In this document: positions 1 through 5,378 of the stretch, piece by piece | Layout: every line of letters begins with the position of its first letter | How positions within the stretch are numbered: the first letter of the stretch is position 1 | Virus record (IMG/VR): IMGVR_UViG_2671180921_000005 | Coordinates: 1 to 5,378 of that record | From: a virus | Lineage: Duplodnaviria; Heunggongvirae; Uroviricota; Caudoviricetes | Direction: 5' to 3' (one strand) | DNA: 5,378 bases | Made by a program: the position numbers and the translations under genes | Notes under the pieces: model-generated | The model's database searches: none | The model's input: the letters and a program-made list of their open reading frames with translations, nothing else | What the model was told of the DNA's origin: nothing

Positions 1-1
1 G

Positions 2-397
2 AACGCCATTCAAGCTATCCAGCAAATCCTTCCAGACCCAACCAAACCAATCGTAGTAACCATTCAGGAACGCAACCGTAGCTTAGACCAAAACCGAAAG
101 CTTTGGGCTTGCCTTGGTGACGTCTCGCGTCAGGTTGAATGGCATGGTCGATGGCTGGATGCAGAAAGCTGGAAGTGTGTGTTTACCGCAGCATTAAAGC
201 AGCGGGACGTTGTTCCTAACCTTGCCGGGAGTGGCTTTGTGGTAATAGGCCAGTCAACCAGCAGGATGCGTGTAAGCGAATTTGCGGAGCTATTAGAGCT
301 TATACAGGCATTCGGTACAGAGCGTGGCGTTAAGTGGTCAGACGAAGCGCGACTGGCTCTGGAGTGGAAAGCAAGATGGGGAGATCGGGCTGCATGA
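2..397 (+). CDS. ninB: NinB recombination protein (Orf-family single-strand annealing/recombination mediator), 5'-truncated by the window edge
   Basis: Frame 2 is open from the window start to TGA at 395-397. The translation (…[130 protein letters not shown]) matches lambda NinB as I recall it almost residue for residue. The ORF track only shows the part from the internal Met at 179. Confidence 0.9.
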   Translation, partial: NAIQAIQQILPDPTKPIVVTIQERNRSLDQNRKLWACLGDVSRQVEWHGRWLDAESWKCVFTAALKQRDVVPNLAGSGFVVIGQSTSRMRVSEFAELLELIQAFGTERGVKWSDEARLALEWKARWGDRAA

Positions 398-921
398 CTA
401 TCAAATCAAATACGCCAGCACACGACAAGGACTGCTGGCAAACGCCGCTTTGGCTTTTTGATGCACTGGATATTGAGTTTGGATTCTGGCTGGATTCGGC
501 AGCGAGCGACAAAAACGCTCTGTGCGCTCACTGGCTAACTGAGGCTGACGACGCGCTAAATTCTGAGTGGATAAGCCACGGTGCAATCTGGAATAACCCA
601 CCGTACAGCAATATCAGGCCGTGGGTGGAAAAAGCCGCTGAGCAGTGCATACAACAGCGACAGACGGTAGTGATGCTTGTGCCAGAGGATATGTCTGTCG
701 GATGGTTCAGCAAGGCTCTGGAGAGTGTTGACGAAGTTCGTATTATCACTGATGGACGGATTAATTTTATCGAACCATCGACAGGGCTGGAGAAGAAGGG
801 AAACAGCAAAGGCTCCATGCTGCTGATTTGGCGACCGTTCATTAGTCCTCGACGGATGTTTACTATCGTATCCAAAGCGGCATTGATGGCGATCGGGCAG
901 GGCGTCAGGAGGGCGACATGA
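394..921 (+). CDS. Phage Dam-family DNA N6-adenine methyltransferase (orphan, no cognate nuclease visible)
   Basis: ORF in frame 1 ending at TGA 919-921. The translation carries the motif-IV signature WNNPPYS (N/D-PP-Y of amino-methyltransferases) and an N-terminal [12 protein letters not shown] segment typical of the small phage Dam family. Start chosen at ATG 394, which overlaps the ninB stop (ATGA) and has GGGGAG 10 nt upstream; ATG 376 is an alternative. The ORF-track start at 334 lies inside ninB and is unlikely. Confidence 0.82.
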
Positions 922-1100
922 GGCGACAACGACGAAGTTTCACCGACATCATCTGTGAAAACTGCAAATACCTTCCAACGAAACGCTCCAGAAATAAACG
1001 CAAGCCAATCCCAAAAGAATCTGATGTAAAAACCTTCAACTACACGGCTCACCTGTGGGATATCCGGTGGCTAAGACATCGTGCGAGGAATACAAGGTGA
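918..1100 (+). CDS. ninE: NinE protein (small, basic, function unknown)
   Basis: 60-aa ORF whose translation ([60 protein letters not shown]) closely matches lambda NinE from memory. Its start overlaps the methyltransferase stop (ATGA at 918-921). Confidence 0.85.
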
Positions 1101-1159
1101 TTGACGCGATGATTTATTTGGGGCTATATTCCTCACGCGCCAGCAAAATCTGGCGTCGG

Positions 1160-1170
1160 GATTAGGAACC
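1160..1170 (+). repeat. Copy 1 of the 11-bp motif GATTAGGAACC (core TTAGGAAC)
   Basis: Exact 11-mer gattaggaacc at 1160-1170, identical to 1326-1336. An inverted copy of the core (gttcctaa) is at 1295-1302. Confidence 0.6.
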
Positions 1171-1192
1171 CCGGATAGAGACCGCGACAGAC

Positions 1193-1216
1193 ACACGCCG
1201 CGAGCGTGTTTTTTAT
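1193..1216 (+). terminator. Candidate rho-independent terminator downstream of ninE
   Basis: acacgc (1193-1198), loop cgcga, gcgtgt (1204-1209) form a 6-bp stem, followed by ttttt-a-tt. The stem is short, so confidence is moderate. Confidence 0.5.
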
Positions 1217-1294
1217 TGTCGTATGCACGCGCACATCTGAATTATGGTGGGGCGTATGGGGGAGCTGAAAAGCTCGCCGGTTGGTTTCCCGGTA

Positions 1295-1336
1295 GTTCCT
1301 AACCCTGTACGTCTCACCACCCGATGATTAGGAACC
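1295..1336. promoter_or_regulatory. Inverted repeat GTTCCTAA-N26-TTAGGAAC immediately upstream of the ORF6N gene; candidate operator or protein-binding site
   Basis: gttcctaa at 1295-1302 is the reverse complement of ttaggaac at 1329-1336. The right arm is part of the exact 11-mer also present at 1160-1170. It lies 40-80 bp upstream of the GTG start at 1378. Confidence 0.4.
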
Positions 1337-1377
1337 TGACGGTGGTGATAGTTTAGAAACCACTCGAGGGCGTCATT

Positions 1378-2058
1378 GTGACAACTCAAATCTCTGTTGA
1401 AACTCTCTCCCCGATCACCCATAACCAGATTCCTGTTATTACCACCGAACTTTTGGCGCAGCTTTATGGCACAGAAATTCTGAACATCCAGGTTAACTTC
1501 ACCAGAAACAAAGAGCGTTTTGTCGAAGGAAAGCACTTTTTTAAAGCATCTGGTGAGGAATTAAAAAATTTGCGACTTACTTTAAGTAAGTCACAAAACC
1601 CCATATCTCCCAAAGCCCGCTCCCTTATCCTCTGGACAGAACGCGGAGCAGCCCGTCATGCAAAAATGCTCGAAACCGATCAGGCGTGGGATGTGTTCGA
1701 AAAACTGGAAGACTGCTATTTCAGCCAGTGCGAGAAAAATACTGGCAAACAAGAGAAGAAGCCCAACGGGCTTTCCGCAAAAGAAACAGACATCCTTGTA
1801 TGGCTGTGGGATTATGCCAACCGCTCACAGGCATTGTTCCGTGAGTTGTATCCCGCATTAAAACTGATTCAGTCTGGCTATTCCGGCATATGCCACGACT
1901 ACGGCTATGAGTTCTCGTATATCATCGGGAGGGCGAGGGGCGTTTTAATTAATCACACGCGGGATATAGATATTTATGAGCCTGACGGGCCGACGAACCT
2001 TCTGGCATGGGAAAGGCTTAATAACAAAGAGTTGCCGCCTTCACTGCATCGCTACTGA
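1378..2058 (+). CDS. ORF6N/KilA-N-type domain protein (antirepressor-like N-terminal domain) with an uncharacterised C-terminal half
   Basis: 226-aa ORF starting at GTG 1378, with GAGGG 7 nt upstream. The N-terminal ~115 aa contain [46 protein letters not shown] and [33 protein letters not shown], the pattern I associate with ORF6N-domain prophage proteins (NFxRNKERFxEGKHYF…ILWTERGA). The C-terminal ~110 aa are not recognised. Confidence 0.72.
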
Positions 2059-2074
2059 CAATTGACAACTTAAC

Positions 2075-2099
2075 AAACCCAGCTTCGGCTGGGTTTTTT
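2075..2099 (+). terminator. Strong rho-independent terminator
   Basis: aaacccagc (2075-2083), loop ttcg, gctgggttt (2088-2096), followed by a run of six T. This is a perfect GC-rich stem with a tetraloop and U-tract, 17 nt after the ORF6N stop. The A-run upstream means it could also work on the minus strand. Confidence 0.85.
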
Positions 2100-2132
2100 A
2101 TTGCTGAATTTTCAATGTGAGAGGACATGACA

Positions 2133-2855
2133 ATGAATGAGCTGATAAATAACAATGCCATCAAAATGACAAGCATTGAAATCGCTGAGTTGGTGGGAAG
2201 CCAACACGGTAATGTCAGAATATCAATAGAACGTCTGGCAAAGCGTGGGGTGATTCAACTTCCTCCAATGCAAAAAGTTGAAAATAAACAAACAATTAGC
2301 CCTAACAAATTCACAAGCGTGTATATATTCGAAGGCGAACAAGGTAAGCGCGATAGTATCATTGTCGTCGCCCAGTTGTCGCCAGAGTTCACCGCTCGCC
2401 TTGTTGACCGCTGGCGAGAACTCGAAGGGGCAACCGCGAAAATCCCACAAACCTTCTCTGAAGCATTGCGCCTCGCGGCTGACCTTGAAGACCAGAAGGC
2501 TGAACTGGAGAAACAGCTTGCTCTCGCAGCACCTAAAGTTGATTTTGCCGATCGCGTTGGCGAGGCCAGCGGAATTTTGATTGGAAACTTTGCAAAGGTT
2601 GTTGGTATTGGTCCAAACAAACTGTTTGCGTGGATGCGCGATCACAAAATCCTTATTGCTTCAGGTTCCCGGCGAAATGTGCCAATGCAGGAATATATGG
2701 ATCGCGGCTATTTCACAGTGAAAGAAACAGCGGTCAACACAAATCACGGAATACAGATATCGTTCACCACAAAAATAACCGGGCGTGGTCAACAGTGGCT
2801 GACCAGAAAGCTGCTCGATAACGGAATGCTGAAAGTAACAGGGGTGGCTGCTTAA
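2133..2855 (+). CDS. Phage antirepressor-like regulatory protein: N-terminal Rha domain plus C-terminal KilAC/AntA-type domain
   Basis: ORF ending at TAA 2853-2855. The N-terminus (MNELINNNAIKMTSIEIAELVGSQHGNVRISIERLAKRGVI) resembles the phage Rha family, and the C-terminal part (PKVDFADRVGEASGILIGNFAKVVGIGPNKLFAWMRDHKIL…) resembles KilAC-type antirepressor domains. Start placed at ATG 2133 because GAGG (2121-2124) sits 8 nt upstream; ATG 2127 (the ORF-track start) is possible but only 2 nt from the GAGG. Confidence 0.78.
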   Translation: MNELINNNAIKMTSIEIAELVGSQHGNVRISIERLAKRGVIQLPPMQKVENKQTISPNKFTSVYIFEGEQGKRDSIIVVAQLSPEFTARLVDRWRELEGATAKIPQTFSEALRLAADLEDQKAELEKQLALAAPKVDFADRVGEASGILIGNFAKVVGIGPNKLFAWMRDHKILIASGSRRNVPMQEYMDRGYFTVKETAVNTNHGIQISFTTKITGRGQQWLTRKLLDNGMLKVTGVAA

Positions 2856-3145
2856 TGGCTAACCTACGCAAAGAAGCGCGCGGCAGAGAATGTCAGGTAC
2901 GTATTTACGGCGTATGCAATGGCAATCCTGAAACTACAGTTCTGGCACATTACCGGATGGCTGGAATTTGCGGAACTGGAATGAAGCCTGACGACCTGAT
3001 CGGCGCATGGGCTTGTAGCGCGTGTCACGATGAAATCGACCGACGCACCCATAATCTCGACAACAAAGACGCCAGACTTTACCACCTCGAAGGCGTGATC
3101 AGGACGCAGGCGATACTGCTGAAGGAGGGGAAGATTAAACCATGA
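2855..3145 (+). CDS. DUF1364-family protein (YbcO-like), Cys-rich putative metal-binding nuclease-like protein
   Basis: 96-aa ORF whose start overlaps the upstream stop (TAATG). The translation MANLRKEARGRECQVRIYGVCNGNPETTVLAHYRMAGICGTGMKPDDLIGAWACSACHDEIDRR… has the conserved Cys cluster and closely resembles E. coli prophage protein YbcO as I recall it. It sits directly upstream of rusA, as in DLP12-type prophages. Confidence 0.8.
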   Translation: MANLRKEARGRECQVRIYGVCNGNPETTVLAHYRMAGICGTGMKPDDLIGAWACSACHDEIDRRTHNLDNKDARLYHLEGVIRTQAILLKEGKIKP

Positions 3146-3504
3146 ACGAATATCAGTTTGTGCTTCCATACCCGCCGTCGCTGAACACCTACTGGCGAAG
3201 ACGGGGAAGCCAATACTACATCAGCGATAAAGGCCAGAAATACCGAAAAGACGTTCAGAAAATCATCCGCCAACTCAAGTTAGACATTTTCACCAAATCA
3301 CGACTCCGCATCAAAGTCATCGCAGACGTTCCAGACTCCCGCCGCCGCGACCTCGATAACATCCTGAAGGGTTTACTCGACTCCCTTATCCACGCCGGAT
3401 TTGCGGAAGACGACGAGCAATTCGATGACATTCGCGTAATTCGTGGTGTGAAAGTACCAGGCGGAAGGCTTGGAATAAAAATCACCGAACTGGAGAACGT
3501 ATGA
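3142..3504 (+). CDS. rusA: RusA Holliday-junction resolvase (crossover junction endodeoxyribonuclease)
   Basis: 120-aa ORF with an ATGA overlap to the upstream gene. Counting residues in the translation gives D70, D72, K76 and D91 within …RRRDLDNILKGLLDSL…AEDDEQFDD…, exactly the positions of the RusA catalytic Asp/Lys residues. The length also matches RusA. Confidence 0.92.
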   Translation: MNEYQFVLPYPPSLNTYWRRRGSQYYISDKGQKYRKDVQKIIRQLKLDIFTKSRLRIKVIADVPDSRRRDLDNILKGLLDSLIHAGFAEDDEQFDDIRVIRGVKVPGGRLGIKITELENV

Positions 3505-3689
3505 ACGCCACAATTCAAACGATACCAGAGCTTCTTATCCAGACACGAGGCAATCAGACCGAAGTGGCGAGGATGCTTTCCTGCGCAAGAGGAGCAGTGC
3601 TCAAGTACAACCGAGACAGCAAAGGCGAGCGTCACGTAATAGTTAACGGAGTCCTGATGGTCACGCCAGGCAAAAAGGGAAGACGATGA
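3501..3689 (+). CDS. ninH: NinH-like small DNA-binding protein
   Basis: 62-aa ORF with an ATGA overlap upstream. The translation (…IPELLIQTRGNQTEVARMLSCARGAVLKYNRDSKGERHVIVNGVLMV…) matches the lambda NinH pattern (…GNQTEVARRL.C.RGTV.KY…H.IVN.VLMV) from memory. Confidence 0.8.
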   Translation: MNATIQTIPELLIQTRGNQTEVARMLSCARGAVLKYNRDSKGERHVIVNGVLMVTPGKKGRR

Positions 3690-4309
3690 GACTCGAAAGC
3701 GTAGCTAAATTTCATTCGCCAAAAAGCCCGATGATGAGCGACTCACCACGGGCTACGGCTTCTGACTCTCTTTCCGGTACTGATGTGATGGCTGCTATGG
3801 GGATGGCGCAATCACAAGCCGGATTCGGTATGGCTGCATTCTGCGGTAAGCACGAACTCAGCCAGAACGACAAACAAAAGGCTATCAACTATCTGATGCA
3901 ATTTGCACACAAGGTATCGGGGAAATACCGTGGCGTGGCAAAGCTTGAAGGAAATACTAAGGCAAAGGTACTGCAAGTGCTCGCAACATTCGCTTATGCG
4001 GATTATTGCCGTAGTGCCGCTACGCCGGGCGCAAGATGCAGAGATTGCCACGGTACAGGCCGTGCGGTTGATATAGCCAAAACAGAGCAGTGGGGGATAG
4101 TTGCTGAGAAAGAGTGCGGAAGATGTAAAGGCGTCGGTTATTCAAGAATGCCAGCAAGCGCCGCATATCGCGCTGTGACGATGCTAATCCCAAACCTTAC
4201 CCAACCCACCTGGTCACGCACTGTTAAGCCGCTGTATGACGCTCTGGTTGTGCAATGCCACAAGGAAGAGTCAATCGCAGACAACATTTTGAATGCGATC
4301 ACACGTTAG
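3686..4309 (+). CDS. Q: Late gene antiterminator Q (lambda Q type)
   Basis: 207-aa ORF with an ATGA overlap to ninH. The translation is near-identical over its length to lambda Q as I recall it (MRLESVAKFHSPKSPMMSDSPRATASDSLSGTDVMAAMGMAQSQAGFGM…), including the Cys4 zinc-binding motif CRDCHG…CGRCKG. Its position immediately upstream of a pR'-like promoter fits. Confidence 0.93.
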   Translation: MRLESVAKFHSPKSPMMSDSPRATASDSLSGTDVMAAMGMAQSQAGFGMAAFCGKHELSQNDKQKAINYLMQFAHKVSGKYRGVAKLEGNTKAKVLQVLATFAYADYCRSAATPGARCRDCHGTGRAVDIAKTEQWGIVAEKECGRCKGVGYSRMPASAAYRAVTMLIPNLTQPTWSRTVKPLYDALVVQCHKEESIADNILNAITR

Positions 4310-4351
4310 CGCCATGATTGCCACGGATGGCAACATATTAACGGCATAATA

Positions 4352-4410
4352 TTGACTTTTTGAATAACTTTGGGTAAATTTGACACCAATAATGGGCGTT
4401 TTTTACCTGT
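4352..4410 (+). promoter_or_regulatory. Late promoter pR' with overlapping qut (Q-utilisation) site and promoter-proximal pause region
   Basis: -35 TTGACT (4352-4357), 17-bp spacer, -10 TAAATT (4375-4380). The string ttgactttttgaataactttgggtaaatttgac is near-identical to lambda pR' (TTGACTTATTGAATAAAATTGGGTAAATTTGAC). Predicted start is about 4387-4388. The early transcribed region contains the -10-like element ccaataat, analogous to the lambda pause-inducing element. Confidence 0.78.
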
Positions 4411-4588
4411 CACTGATGAGTCTCAATAACCTGCCGCCGAGTAGTTTTTATGCTCTGAATTGTATTTGTGTAGTAAACATGCTGACTGCAATGTAATAGA
4501 GGTTTTTTAGCCTGTAACCTCTTGACGGCATTGAATTGCTTTTGTTGTGAGTTGTAAGCCAATGTTATCATCTTGTATAGAGGTGGTT

Positions 4589-5305
4589 ATGAGGGATGGT
4601 GCACTGCTCAGGAGTTCTTCACTTTTTATAGCCTACATGGGATGCCTTGGATGGGGAAGTGCTTATTTCTATGGCTGGGGTACTTCTTTTTACTACGGAT
4701 TCCCATGGTGGATTGTAGGTGCAGGTGTTGATGATGTTGCCAGAAGTTTATTTTTTGCAGTTATCGTCATTGCTATATTTCTTATCGGTTGGGGTATTGG
4801 TGTTGTATTCTTTTTCGCTGTGAAAAGAAAACATTCTATGCAGGAGCTAAATGTATTTCGCCTTTATTTTGCTGTGGAATTATTGTTTGTGCCGGCAATT
4901 ATTGAGTTTTCTATATTGAGACAGAAGATTCAGGTACCTCTTTTGCTACTGTCAGCAGCGATTGCGCTGGCAGTTACAATTTCGATAAGATCTTATGGGC
5001 GATTTTTATCGGTATCATGCTTCTATGGTAAGCCATTTATAAAAAAACATATTTTTGAAGTTGTGATGGTTGCTTTTGTGGCATATTTCTGGCTCTTCTC
5101 ATTTCTGACAGGATATTACAAACCTCAGTTTAAGAAAGAATATGAAATGATTAATTATAATGATGCTTGGTATTATGTTCTTGCTCGTTATGATAATTGT
5201 CTGGTTTTGTCTACTTCTTTTAATGCAGGTAGTAAGAGGTTTGTCATTTATCAATCAGCACAAGACAAGAATCTTCAGGTTGATATTGTAAGGACCAGAA
5301 TTTAA
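4589..5305 (+). CDS. Hypothetical multi-pass inner-membrane protein (about 238 aa; 4-5 predicted TM helices plus ~55-aa C-terminal soluble tail), AT-rich moron cargo downstream of Q/pR'
   Basis: Long ORF in a strongly AT-rich segment, ending at TAA 5303-5305. Start placed at ATG 4589 with a good SD (AGGTGG at 4581-4586, 2-nt gap before the ATG); the ORF-track start at GTG 4547 and ATG 4562 lack an SD. Hydrophobic stretches: SLFIAYMGCLGWGSAYFYGWG, LFFAVIVIAIFLIGWGIGVVFFFAV, LYFAVELLFVPAIIEFSIL, VPLLLLSAAIALAVTISI, IFEVVMVAFVAYFWLFSFLTGYY. No family recognised. The segment has no long ORF on the opposite strand. Confidence 0.6.
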   Translation: MRDGALLRSSSLFIAYMGCLGWGSAYFYGWGTSFYYGFPWWIVGAGVDDVARSLFFAVIVIAIFLIGWGIGVVFFFAVKRKHSMQELNVFRLYFAVELLFVPAIIEFSILRQKIQVPLLLLSAAIALAVTISIRSYGRFLSVSCFYGKPFIKKHIFEVVMVAFVAYFWLFSFLTGYYKPQFKKEYEMINYNDAWYYVLARYDNCLVLSTSFNAGSKRFVIYQSAQDKNLQVDIVRTRI

Positions 5306-5378
5306 TTGGCTGCATAAATAATATTTTTAGTTGCAAGTTGGCTATTCGTAAGAATAGAACCTTAGGCATGCTGAATGC

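Follow-up and report, generated by a model that had tools for sequence, protein, structure and literature searches.

A lambda-type late promoter lacking a recognizable proximal terminator in front of a two-gene membrane-protein moron in Escherichia coli prophages

The late promoters of lambdoid phages are commonly regarded as permanently active and yet harmless because a terminator lies right behind them, an arrangement that keeps Shiga toxin-type cargo silent until induction. [quoted passage not shown] What, then, is to be expected where a lambda-type pR′ is followed by cargo genes with no evident terminator in between? We examined this question in a stretch of DNA of 5,378 nucleotides (positions 1 to 5,378 of IMG/VR virus record IMGVR_UViG_2671180921_000005), called the window throughout, which comes from a lambdoid E. 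coli prophage and covers its nin-to-late region. Its genes are, in order, NinB, a methyltransferase, an antisense-RNA-controlled antirepressor module, YbcO, RusA, NinH, Q and two small membrane-protein genes; these are followed by a holin gene and then an ORF (DUF1327), and in L009, a relative with the same cargo protein, the endolysin comes next. Four draft E. coli contigs (L010, L012, L013 and L014) are 100% identical to the window, and L010 extends it downstream; a window coordinate is the L010 coordinate minus 272.

The antirepressor module has features of its own. Within window 1101–2096 there are Rfam matches above the gathering score to c4-a1b1 (1124–1177), isrK (1137–1214) and the C4 antisense RNA (1240–1324), with a strong promoter-like site, TTGACG-N18-TATATT (1101–1130), upstream of these matches; downstream of the C4 RNA come an ORF6N/P22_AR_C antirepressor gene (1378–2058), a terminator (2075–2096) and a Rha/KilAC antirepressor gene (2127–2855). 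This region resembles the antirepressor modules under antisense control known from P1 (immI) or Gifsy-1 (IsrK), here located in nin, just upstream of Q.

The lambda-type late elements of the window are the following:

3686–4309, plus strand: lambda-type antiterminator Q gene (PF03589, E 1e-57; 203 of 207 positions identical to lambda Q, 98%)
4352–4380, plus strand: pR′ late promoter by alignment with lambda, with −35 TTGACT at 4352–4357, a 17-nt spacer and −10 TAAATT at 4375–4380
4388–4396, plus strand: −10-like element, AATAAT and then GGG, at predicted +1 to +9, expected to induce pausing and aligning with AACGAT-GGG of lambda
4399–4404, plus strand: U6 tract at predicted +12 to +17, where the sigma-dependent pause would be expected (best upstream hairpin ΔG −0.1)

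A preliminary description of this DNA had recognized lambda-type pR′ elements, TTGACT-N17-TAAATT, at 4352–4380, and this reading is borne out by the alignment with lambda pR′ and by the position behind a lambda-type Q gene. Hexamer matches at 9 of 12 positions are in themselves frequent by chance (6 found versus 7.7 expected from shuffles); pR′ is nevertheless homologous and not a chance match, because 4300–4396 aligns base for base with lambda pR′ and Q precedes it. It is also the best-scoring promoter-like site in the window by a rough weight matrix. The spacer with the Q-binding element is identical to that of lambda at 14 of 17 positions and differs at the other 3, and by homology it would be expected to bind Q. 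In lambda, the −10-like element induces a sigma-70-dependent pause at +16/+17, where Q loads, and from this knowledge we infer a pausing role for 4388–4396. The U6 tract at 4399–4404 is retained in a diverged lambda-type lineage (L134) in which both of its flanks have changed (GGGTGTTTTTTGCC versus GGGCGTTTTTTACC). Homology to lambda stops at about 4396 (~+9).

Does RNA polymerase leaving this promoter meet a terminator in the leader, 4388–4588? A built-in terminator scan found none there, but the same scan misses lambda tR′ (L130, 650–1450) because the tR′ loop exceeds its length limit, so its negative alone proves little. We also used a single-hairpin scan, in which every U-rich tail is considered and the best hairpin closed directly against that tail is scored by d; the score follows the formula of d'Aubenton Carafa 1990 and is used only relative to controls. 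Every candidate in 4388–4588 gave d<0, whereas all six positive controls gave d>0 (+6.6 to +44.8). The controls, and the candidate structures of the leader, are:

Lambda tR′, positive control: ΔG −26.3 kcal/mol, d +13
Phage 434 late terminator, positive control: ΔG −12.0, d +24
L010 6007–6025 terminator, positive control: ΔG −13.0, d +44.8
L010 6374–6402 terminator, positive control: ΔG −15.1, d +6.6
Window 2075–2096 terminator, positive control: ΔG −14.0, d +22
Window 1193–1209, isrK terminator, positive control: ΔG −7.1, d +18
Window 4431–4444 + U5, candidate: ΔG −1.2 (−2.2 unconstrained), d −18.7
Window 4488–4547, plus strand, irregular 52-nt hairpin 4488–4539 + UUUUGUUG, the best remaining candidate: ΔG −10.3, d −10.4
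Window 4498–4522, plus strand, hairpin AGAGGTT (4498–4504) / AACCTCT (4516–4522) with an 11-nt loop and without a U-tract after it: ΔG −6.8 to −7.3

The preliminary description had found no convincing intrinsic terminator before the cargo gene and had proposed a terminator prediction across 4380–4600; in the scans of 4388–4588 no candidate passes, and the control-calibrated d scores, all below zero, uphold its view. It had also listed three T-runs, of which those at 4445–4449 and 4503–4508 are present; 4411–4416 instead reads CACTGA, and the first run is that at 4399–4404. The hairpin 4498–4504/4516–4522, with its 11-nt loop and no U-tract, is there as it had been described, and has a mismatch in most relatives. 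The irregular fold at 4488–4539 is not the minimum-energy fold of its segment and weakens to ΔG −4.6 in O157/2B8 and to −0.8 in 434; it is therefore not a conserved terminator.

Less conventional signals were sought as well. Folding of the whole leader showed no extra stability over shuffles (z = 0.44), and Rfam 15 covariance models run on 4352–4588 gave no match with E ≤1. In a search for a rut region by composition, which is only a proxy for such a region, the leader contains 15% C and 23% G, with C/G ≤1.0 everywhere and 0.35–0.7 beyond 4440. Given ordinary folding and a C-poor leader, neither cryptic structure nor a rut site is evident, and the Rho-dependent termination that the preliminary description had offered as one option gains nothing from the composition of the leader. 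Of the promoter-proximal, tR′-like terminator that belongs to a lambda-type module, 4388–4588 holds only a relic (ΔG about −2).

The origin of this relic is apparent from the structure of the junction, which has two parts:

4397–4427, plus strand: lineage-specific 31-nt filler separating the part homologous to lambda from the part homologous to 434, delimited by the alignment limits
4428–4449, plus strand: relic of an 82/434-type late terminator, TAACCTGCCGCCGAGTAG + T5, aligned to AAACCCGCTGCCGAGTGGG + T8 of 434

In phage 434 and in Sakai Sp3, an annotated terminator (AAACCCGCTGCCGAGTGGG + T8) lies directly upstream of the shared sequence, and sensitive alignment places the beginning of the 434–window homology at 4428, at the 5′ arm of the 434 terminator hairpin. 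Compared with that terminator, the window carries a G-to-A change and a 4-nt deletion in the 3′ arm, and it is left with a stem of only 4 pairs and a U-tract of 5 instead of 8; ΔG is −1.2 to −2.2 versus −12.0 to −12.5, and d is −18.7 versus +24. By this alignment 4428–4449 is a terminator relic, and the window has no promoter-proximal terminator because that of the sister arrangement survives only in this form. The filler at 4397–4427 matches phage 2B8 alone in the phage database, with no homolog outside the lineage.

We compared terminator form with promoter type in 128 junction-containing loci from IMG/VR and other fetches. The relic form occurs only with the lambda-type promoter (about 80 of the 128 loci), and the intact form (48 loci), together with one weakened copy (L089, ΔG −6.2), only with the 82-type promoter; no recombinants of terminator form and promoter type were found among the 128. 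Within the relic class, extra point mutations are scattered across the former stem and loop, as expected if the sequence has been freed from selection. Escherichia albertii NBRC 107761 (L132, about 2930–2960) combines an 82-type promoter with a weakened terminator (GTGG + T8, ΔG −3.1) whose sequence is between the 434 form and the window relic. This copy indicates that terminator strength is imperfectly tied to promoter type and that its loss is not unique to the lambda-type setting.

If the leader does not stop a transcript from pR′, where would it end? In every lineage checked, no canonical plus-strand terminator follows pR′ until the second cargo gene (DUF3927 family) has been passed, and in every lineage examined another terminator stands just before the holin gene. 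The terminators are at 6007–6025 and 6374–6402 in L010, where the holin gene is at 6440; at 7174–7192 and 9503–9529 in L007; at 7425–7446, 7544–7565 and 9603–9631 in O157 Xuzhou21; and at 7437–7455 and 7806–7834 in strain D1. From +1 to the first strong terminator the distance is ~1.37 kb in the window's phage (L010 6007–6025, equivalent to window 5735–5753 and so past the window end). Terminators between the promoter and the lysis genes, as a lambda-type Q/qut module requires, are present in L010. That pR′ transcripts enter the cargo gene even without Q, the other option of the preliminary description, would fit this placement of the first strong terminators after the cargo genes.

The stretch between cargo and holin also contains two sub-threshold Rfam matches, to STnc100 (L010 5832–5989, plus strand, 36.8 bits; gathering 47) and to Esr41 (L010 6211–6300, minus strand, 32.3 bits; gathering 102). 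They fit the convergent small-RNA region that Tree et al. place between the moron genes and a conserved downstream ORF (PMC4104026).

The cargo itself is defined by these features:

4493–4588, plus strand: conserved upstream block of the cargo moron, its left boundary taken from the orphan copy L133
4542–4571, plus strand: candidate cargo promoter by motif, with −35 TTGTTG at 4542–4547, N18, TG at 4563–4564 and −10 TATCAT at 4566–4571
4579–4586, plus strand: Shine-Dalgarno region AGAGGTGG, read from the sequence
4589–5305, plus strand: cargo gene 1, a 238-aa multi-pass membrane protein (phrog_1521, function unknown, E 4e-151)

At the junction, GC content drops from about 50% to 30–44%, and the cargo has 37% versus 49.5% upstream. 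The presence of the cargo is patchy: it is absent from lambda and HK97, occurs behind two Q types, and is also found alone. The solitary copy is in L133 (Escherichia sp. MOD1-EC7003, 2907–4266), where the cassette sits beside bioA and an emrE-like gene with no Q or late promoter upstream; a prophage at the lambda attachment region seems to have been lost here except for its moron. L133 and the window are homologous from 4493 onward, up to and including the terminator that follows gene 2 (L010 4765–6142), so the moron unit extends from 4493 to about 5870 (window-equivalent), and the moron's own strong terminator, after the second cargo gene, falls within the block common to L133. Morons are known to insert downstream of pR′ (PMC4104026). 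Like other lambdoid morons (Juhala et al. 2000, cited in PMC4104026), this one is low in GC, has a terminator and is present or absent among otherwise related phages; it is unlike them in also lying under a late promoter without insulation, and its own promoter is a candidate by prediction. The cargo protein is labelled PF27470 'TfpB' in precomputed hits and has no match in PADLOC, NCBIfam or a local Pfam copy. The literature on TfpB, TciB, DUF3927 and ECs0816/Z0955 yielded nothing on the cassette; Z0955 is a different gene, apparently an lpxR neighbour.

Where the cargo gene begins matters for how its upstream region is read. PGAP and the phage 434 record both begin the gene at the ATG corresponding to 4562. 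In L133, an in-frame TAA separates ATG 4562 from ATG 4589, which also has the better ribosome-binding site. This stop codon sets the start of the gene at 4589, as the preliminary description had it, and makes 4562–4588 non-coding; the annotated start, which overlaps the predicted −10, is probably 27 nt upstream of the real one.

The weak promoter TTGTTG-N18-TATCAT that had been suggested for the cargo has correct coordinates and gains support from the extended −10 TG, its rank and its invariance. By an approximate weight matrix, TGtTATCAT (4563–4571) ranks third among 26,715 window positions, with only pR′ and the antisense-RNA module promoter above it. All complete copies among about 126 loci, and L133 as well, have the block TGTTATCAT unchanged; the five diverged versions agree in CCTCTTGACGGCATTGAATTGCTTTTGTT and ATGTTATCATCTTGT and differ in the spacer that separates these blocks and in the stretch ahead of the ribosome-binding site. 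The −35 is poor, reading TTGTTG in the window and TTGTTA in most relatives, in which a promoter scan flags TTGTTA with the TG. A second −35 proposed earlier, TTGACG at 4522–4527, is present but has no acceptable −10 16–18 nt downstream. These motifs suggest that the cargo probably has its own weak extended −10 promoter, with a predicted start near 4577–4579. The 'CII site' of the 434 record (TTGY-N6-TTGY) is a loose consensus match.

Comparison with well-described late regions brings out what is unusual here. The window resembles the lambda late module (Q, pR′, qut, tR′, 6S RNA) in a Q that is 98% identical, in the same −35 and −10 hexamers, in a spacer matching at 14/17 positions, in a −10-like element and GGG at the same place, and in having the lysis genes downstream. 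It differs in that lambda tR′ (ΔG −26.3) ends about 190 nt from the start, whereas the window has no terminator for ~1.37 kb and two protein-coding genes fill the space from pR′ to the terminator. With phage 434 (OL657226) and Sakai Sp3 (ECs_0815–ECs_0816) it shares the cargo genes and their upstream block from 4428, which is 95.5% identical; but Q and the late promoter are of the 82 type in 434/Sp3 and of the lambda type in the window, and in 434/Sp3 an intact terminator (ΔG −12, U8) lies ~55 nt from the promoter and insulates the cargo from Q-independent transcription. The Stx phages (PMC7547250) also place cargo just downstream of a constitutive, Q-antiterminated late promoter, and their downstream module likewise has a nanS-p-like esterase gene and then a holin gene. 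Their tR′, however, is 258 nt from pR′ and upstream of the cargo, and their short RNA is processed into the sRNA StxS (PMC7547250), whereas with no terminator between promoter and cargo no short RNA is predicted for the window. The individual parts are already known: Q and pR′ of lambda, the annotation of 434, moron insertion at this site, and a pR′ that is constitutively active and gives short RNAs. In the literature we found no description of a lambda-type late promoter without a proximal terminator and with cargo in the Q-independent transcript.

We favor, with a probability of roughly 0.55, the reading that Q-independent pR′ transcripts run through the cargo genes and end at the distal terminator, the cargo being expressed from pR′ and, more weakly, from its own promoter. 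The leader would be a mosaic late-operon leader, in which a lambda-type Q/pR′/qut module has been joined through the 31-nt filler to a two-gene membrane-protein moron. Since pR′ and its pause element have survived and the terminator close to them is broken, read-through of both cargo genes is the simplest prediction: unmodified polymerase from pR′ should meet no stop between +1 (about 4388) and 4589, and RNA made without Q would cross both cargo genes and end ~1.37 kb downstream, at L010 6007–6025. The distal terminator and the one before the holin gene would then take the part of tR′, with Q overcoming both for the lysis genes, and the cargo, in place of the short 6S RNA of lambda, would be expressed in lysogens. 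The moron's own weak extended −10 promoter (4563–4571) would add lower-level lysogenic expression, and in the 434-type setting lysogenic expression of the cargo would depend on this internal promoter alone. The evidence here is sequence anatomy, homologies, folding energies and the association of terminator allele with promoter; promoter activity, read-through and the site of termination are predictions from it. The stronger formulation, that a lambda-type late promoter became a constitutive lysogenic promoter for a cargo operon, with the Q-sensitive terminator moved by ~1.37 kb and a two-gene mRNA replacing a 6S/StxS-type RNA, we hold more tentatively, at somewhat under even odds. Several features could temper read-through. 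Rho or H-NS could act, in ways hidden from sequence analysis, on the AT-rich leader, of which some 200 nt are untranslated; the irregular hairpin 4488–4539 + UUUUGUUG could cause partial termination in the window lineage; and the U6 tract at the predicted pause site might allow early release. In most relatives, which have GAAACT as the −10, pR′ may moreover be weak.

An alternative that we consider unlikely is that the cargo in lysogens is fed essentially by the extended −10 promoter, and that pR′ RNA is cut short in the leader, by Rho and possibly H-NS, unless polymerase has been modified by Q. In its favor, TGtTATCAT and the TTG-rich block upstream of it do not vary in any context, the orphan copy among them, and the candidate ranks third in the window; a leader of about 200 nt that is untranslated, in front of cargo with 37% GC, is also consistent with it. 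However, the leader composition given above (15% C, 23% G, C/G 0.35–0.7 beyond 4440) is the opposite of that of a rut site, the −35 TTGTTG is poor in the window, and a start near 4577–4579 would leave a leader of just about 10 nt.

More doubtful is the view that the junction is a neutral recombination scar, with the cargo an ordinary Q-dependent late gene and read-through negligible, pR′ being weak or the prophages decaying. The −10 hexamer speaks in its favor, since most copies carry GAAACT there: about 70 lambda-type IMG/VR loci, including O157:H7 prophages and phage 2B8, and also L002, L003 and L004, whereas TAAATT is found only in the window's rare lineage and in L134, L138 and L139, and TAAGTT in one locus. 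In the carriers of GAAACT pR′ may be weak. Many copies lie in O157 prophages that IS elements have disrupted, further mutations pile up in the relic, and the filler 4397–4427 lacks a homolog outside the lineage, all of which this view would also accommodate. On the other hand, the lambda-type arrangement is carried by the complete 48.8-kb genome of phage 2B8 and by 572 of 5,426 complete E. coli genomes, O157:H7 included, at 96–97% identity; the window lineage has kept the consensus lambda −10; and diverged lineages retain the pause element and its GGG as well as the U6 tract.

The insulated 434-type arrangement is present in 618 E. coli genomes. Most O157:H7 records contain two matching places, which suggests that both wirings coexist in one genome in most of these records and would lend themselves to side-by-side comparison. 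No genome among the 5,426 complete E. coli genomes is ≥99% identical to the window lineage, and the TAAATT lineage is rare. A species-wide scan gave three loci, all Escherichia-like. A 3-kb contig labelled as a Veillonella MAG (L131) carries this E. coli prophage segment with 97% protein identity, and its label probably reflects binning contamination.

Termination without Q at an atypical site, either the hairpin 4488–4539 + UUUUGUUG or release at the U6 pause tract, is improbable, for although the hairpin (ΔG −10.3) has 6 U among the next 7 nt and is strengthened only in the window lineage by a G at 4502 (T in O157/2B8 and 434), and the U6 tract is conserved at +12 to +17, the d of the hairpin, −10.4, compares with at least +6.6 in all controls, its segment has a more stable fold than the one set against the U-tract, which falls to −4.6 and −0.8 in relatives, and no hairpin precedes the U6 tract.

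Transcription from pR′ through the cargo to the distal terminator is thus the reading that we prefer, and the arrangement behind it is a widespread natural case of a late promoter without insulation, carried by roughly one complete E. coli genome in ten. Other prophages, in which these cargo genes follow an intact terminator, provide a ready-made control. If this reading is true, cargo downstream of pR′ would not necessarily be induction-dependent, and the position of the first terminator would set which prophage genes a lysogen expresses.
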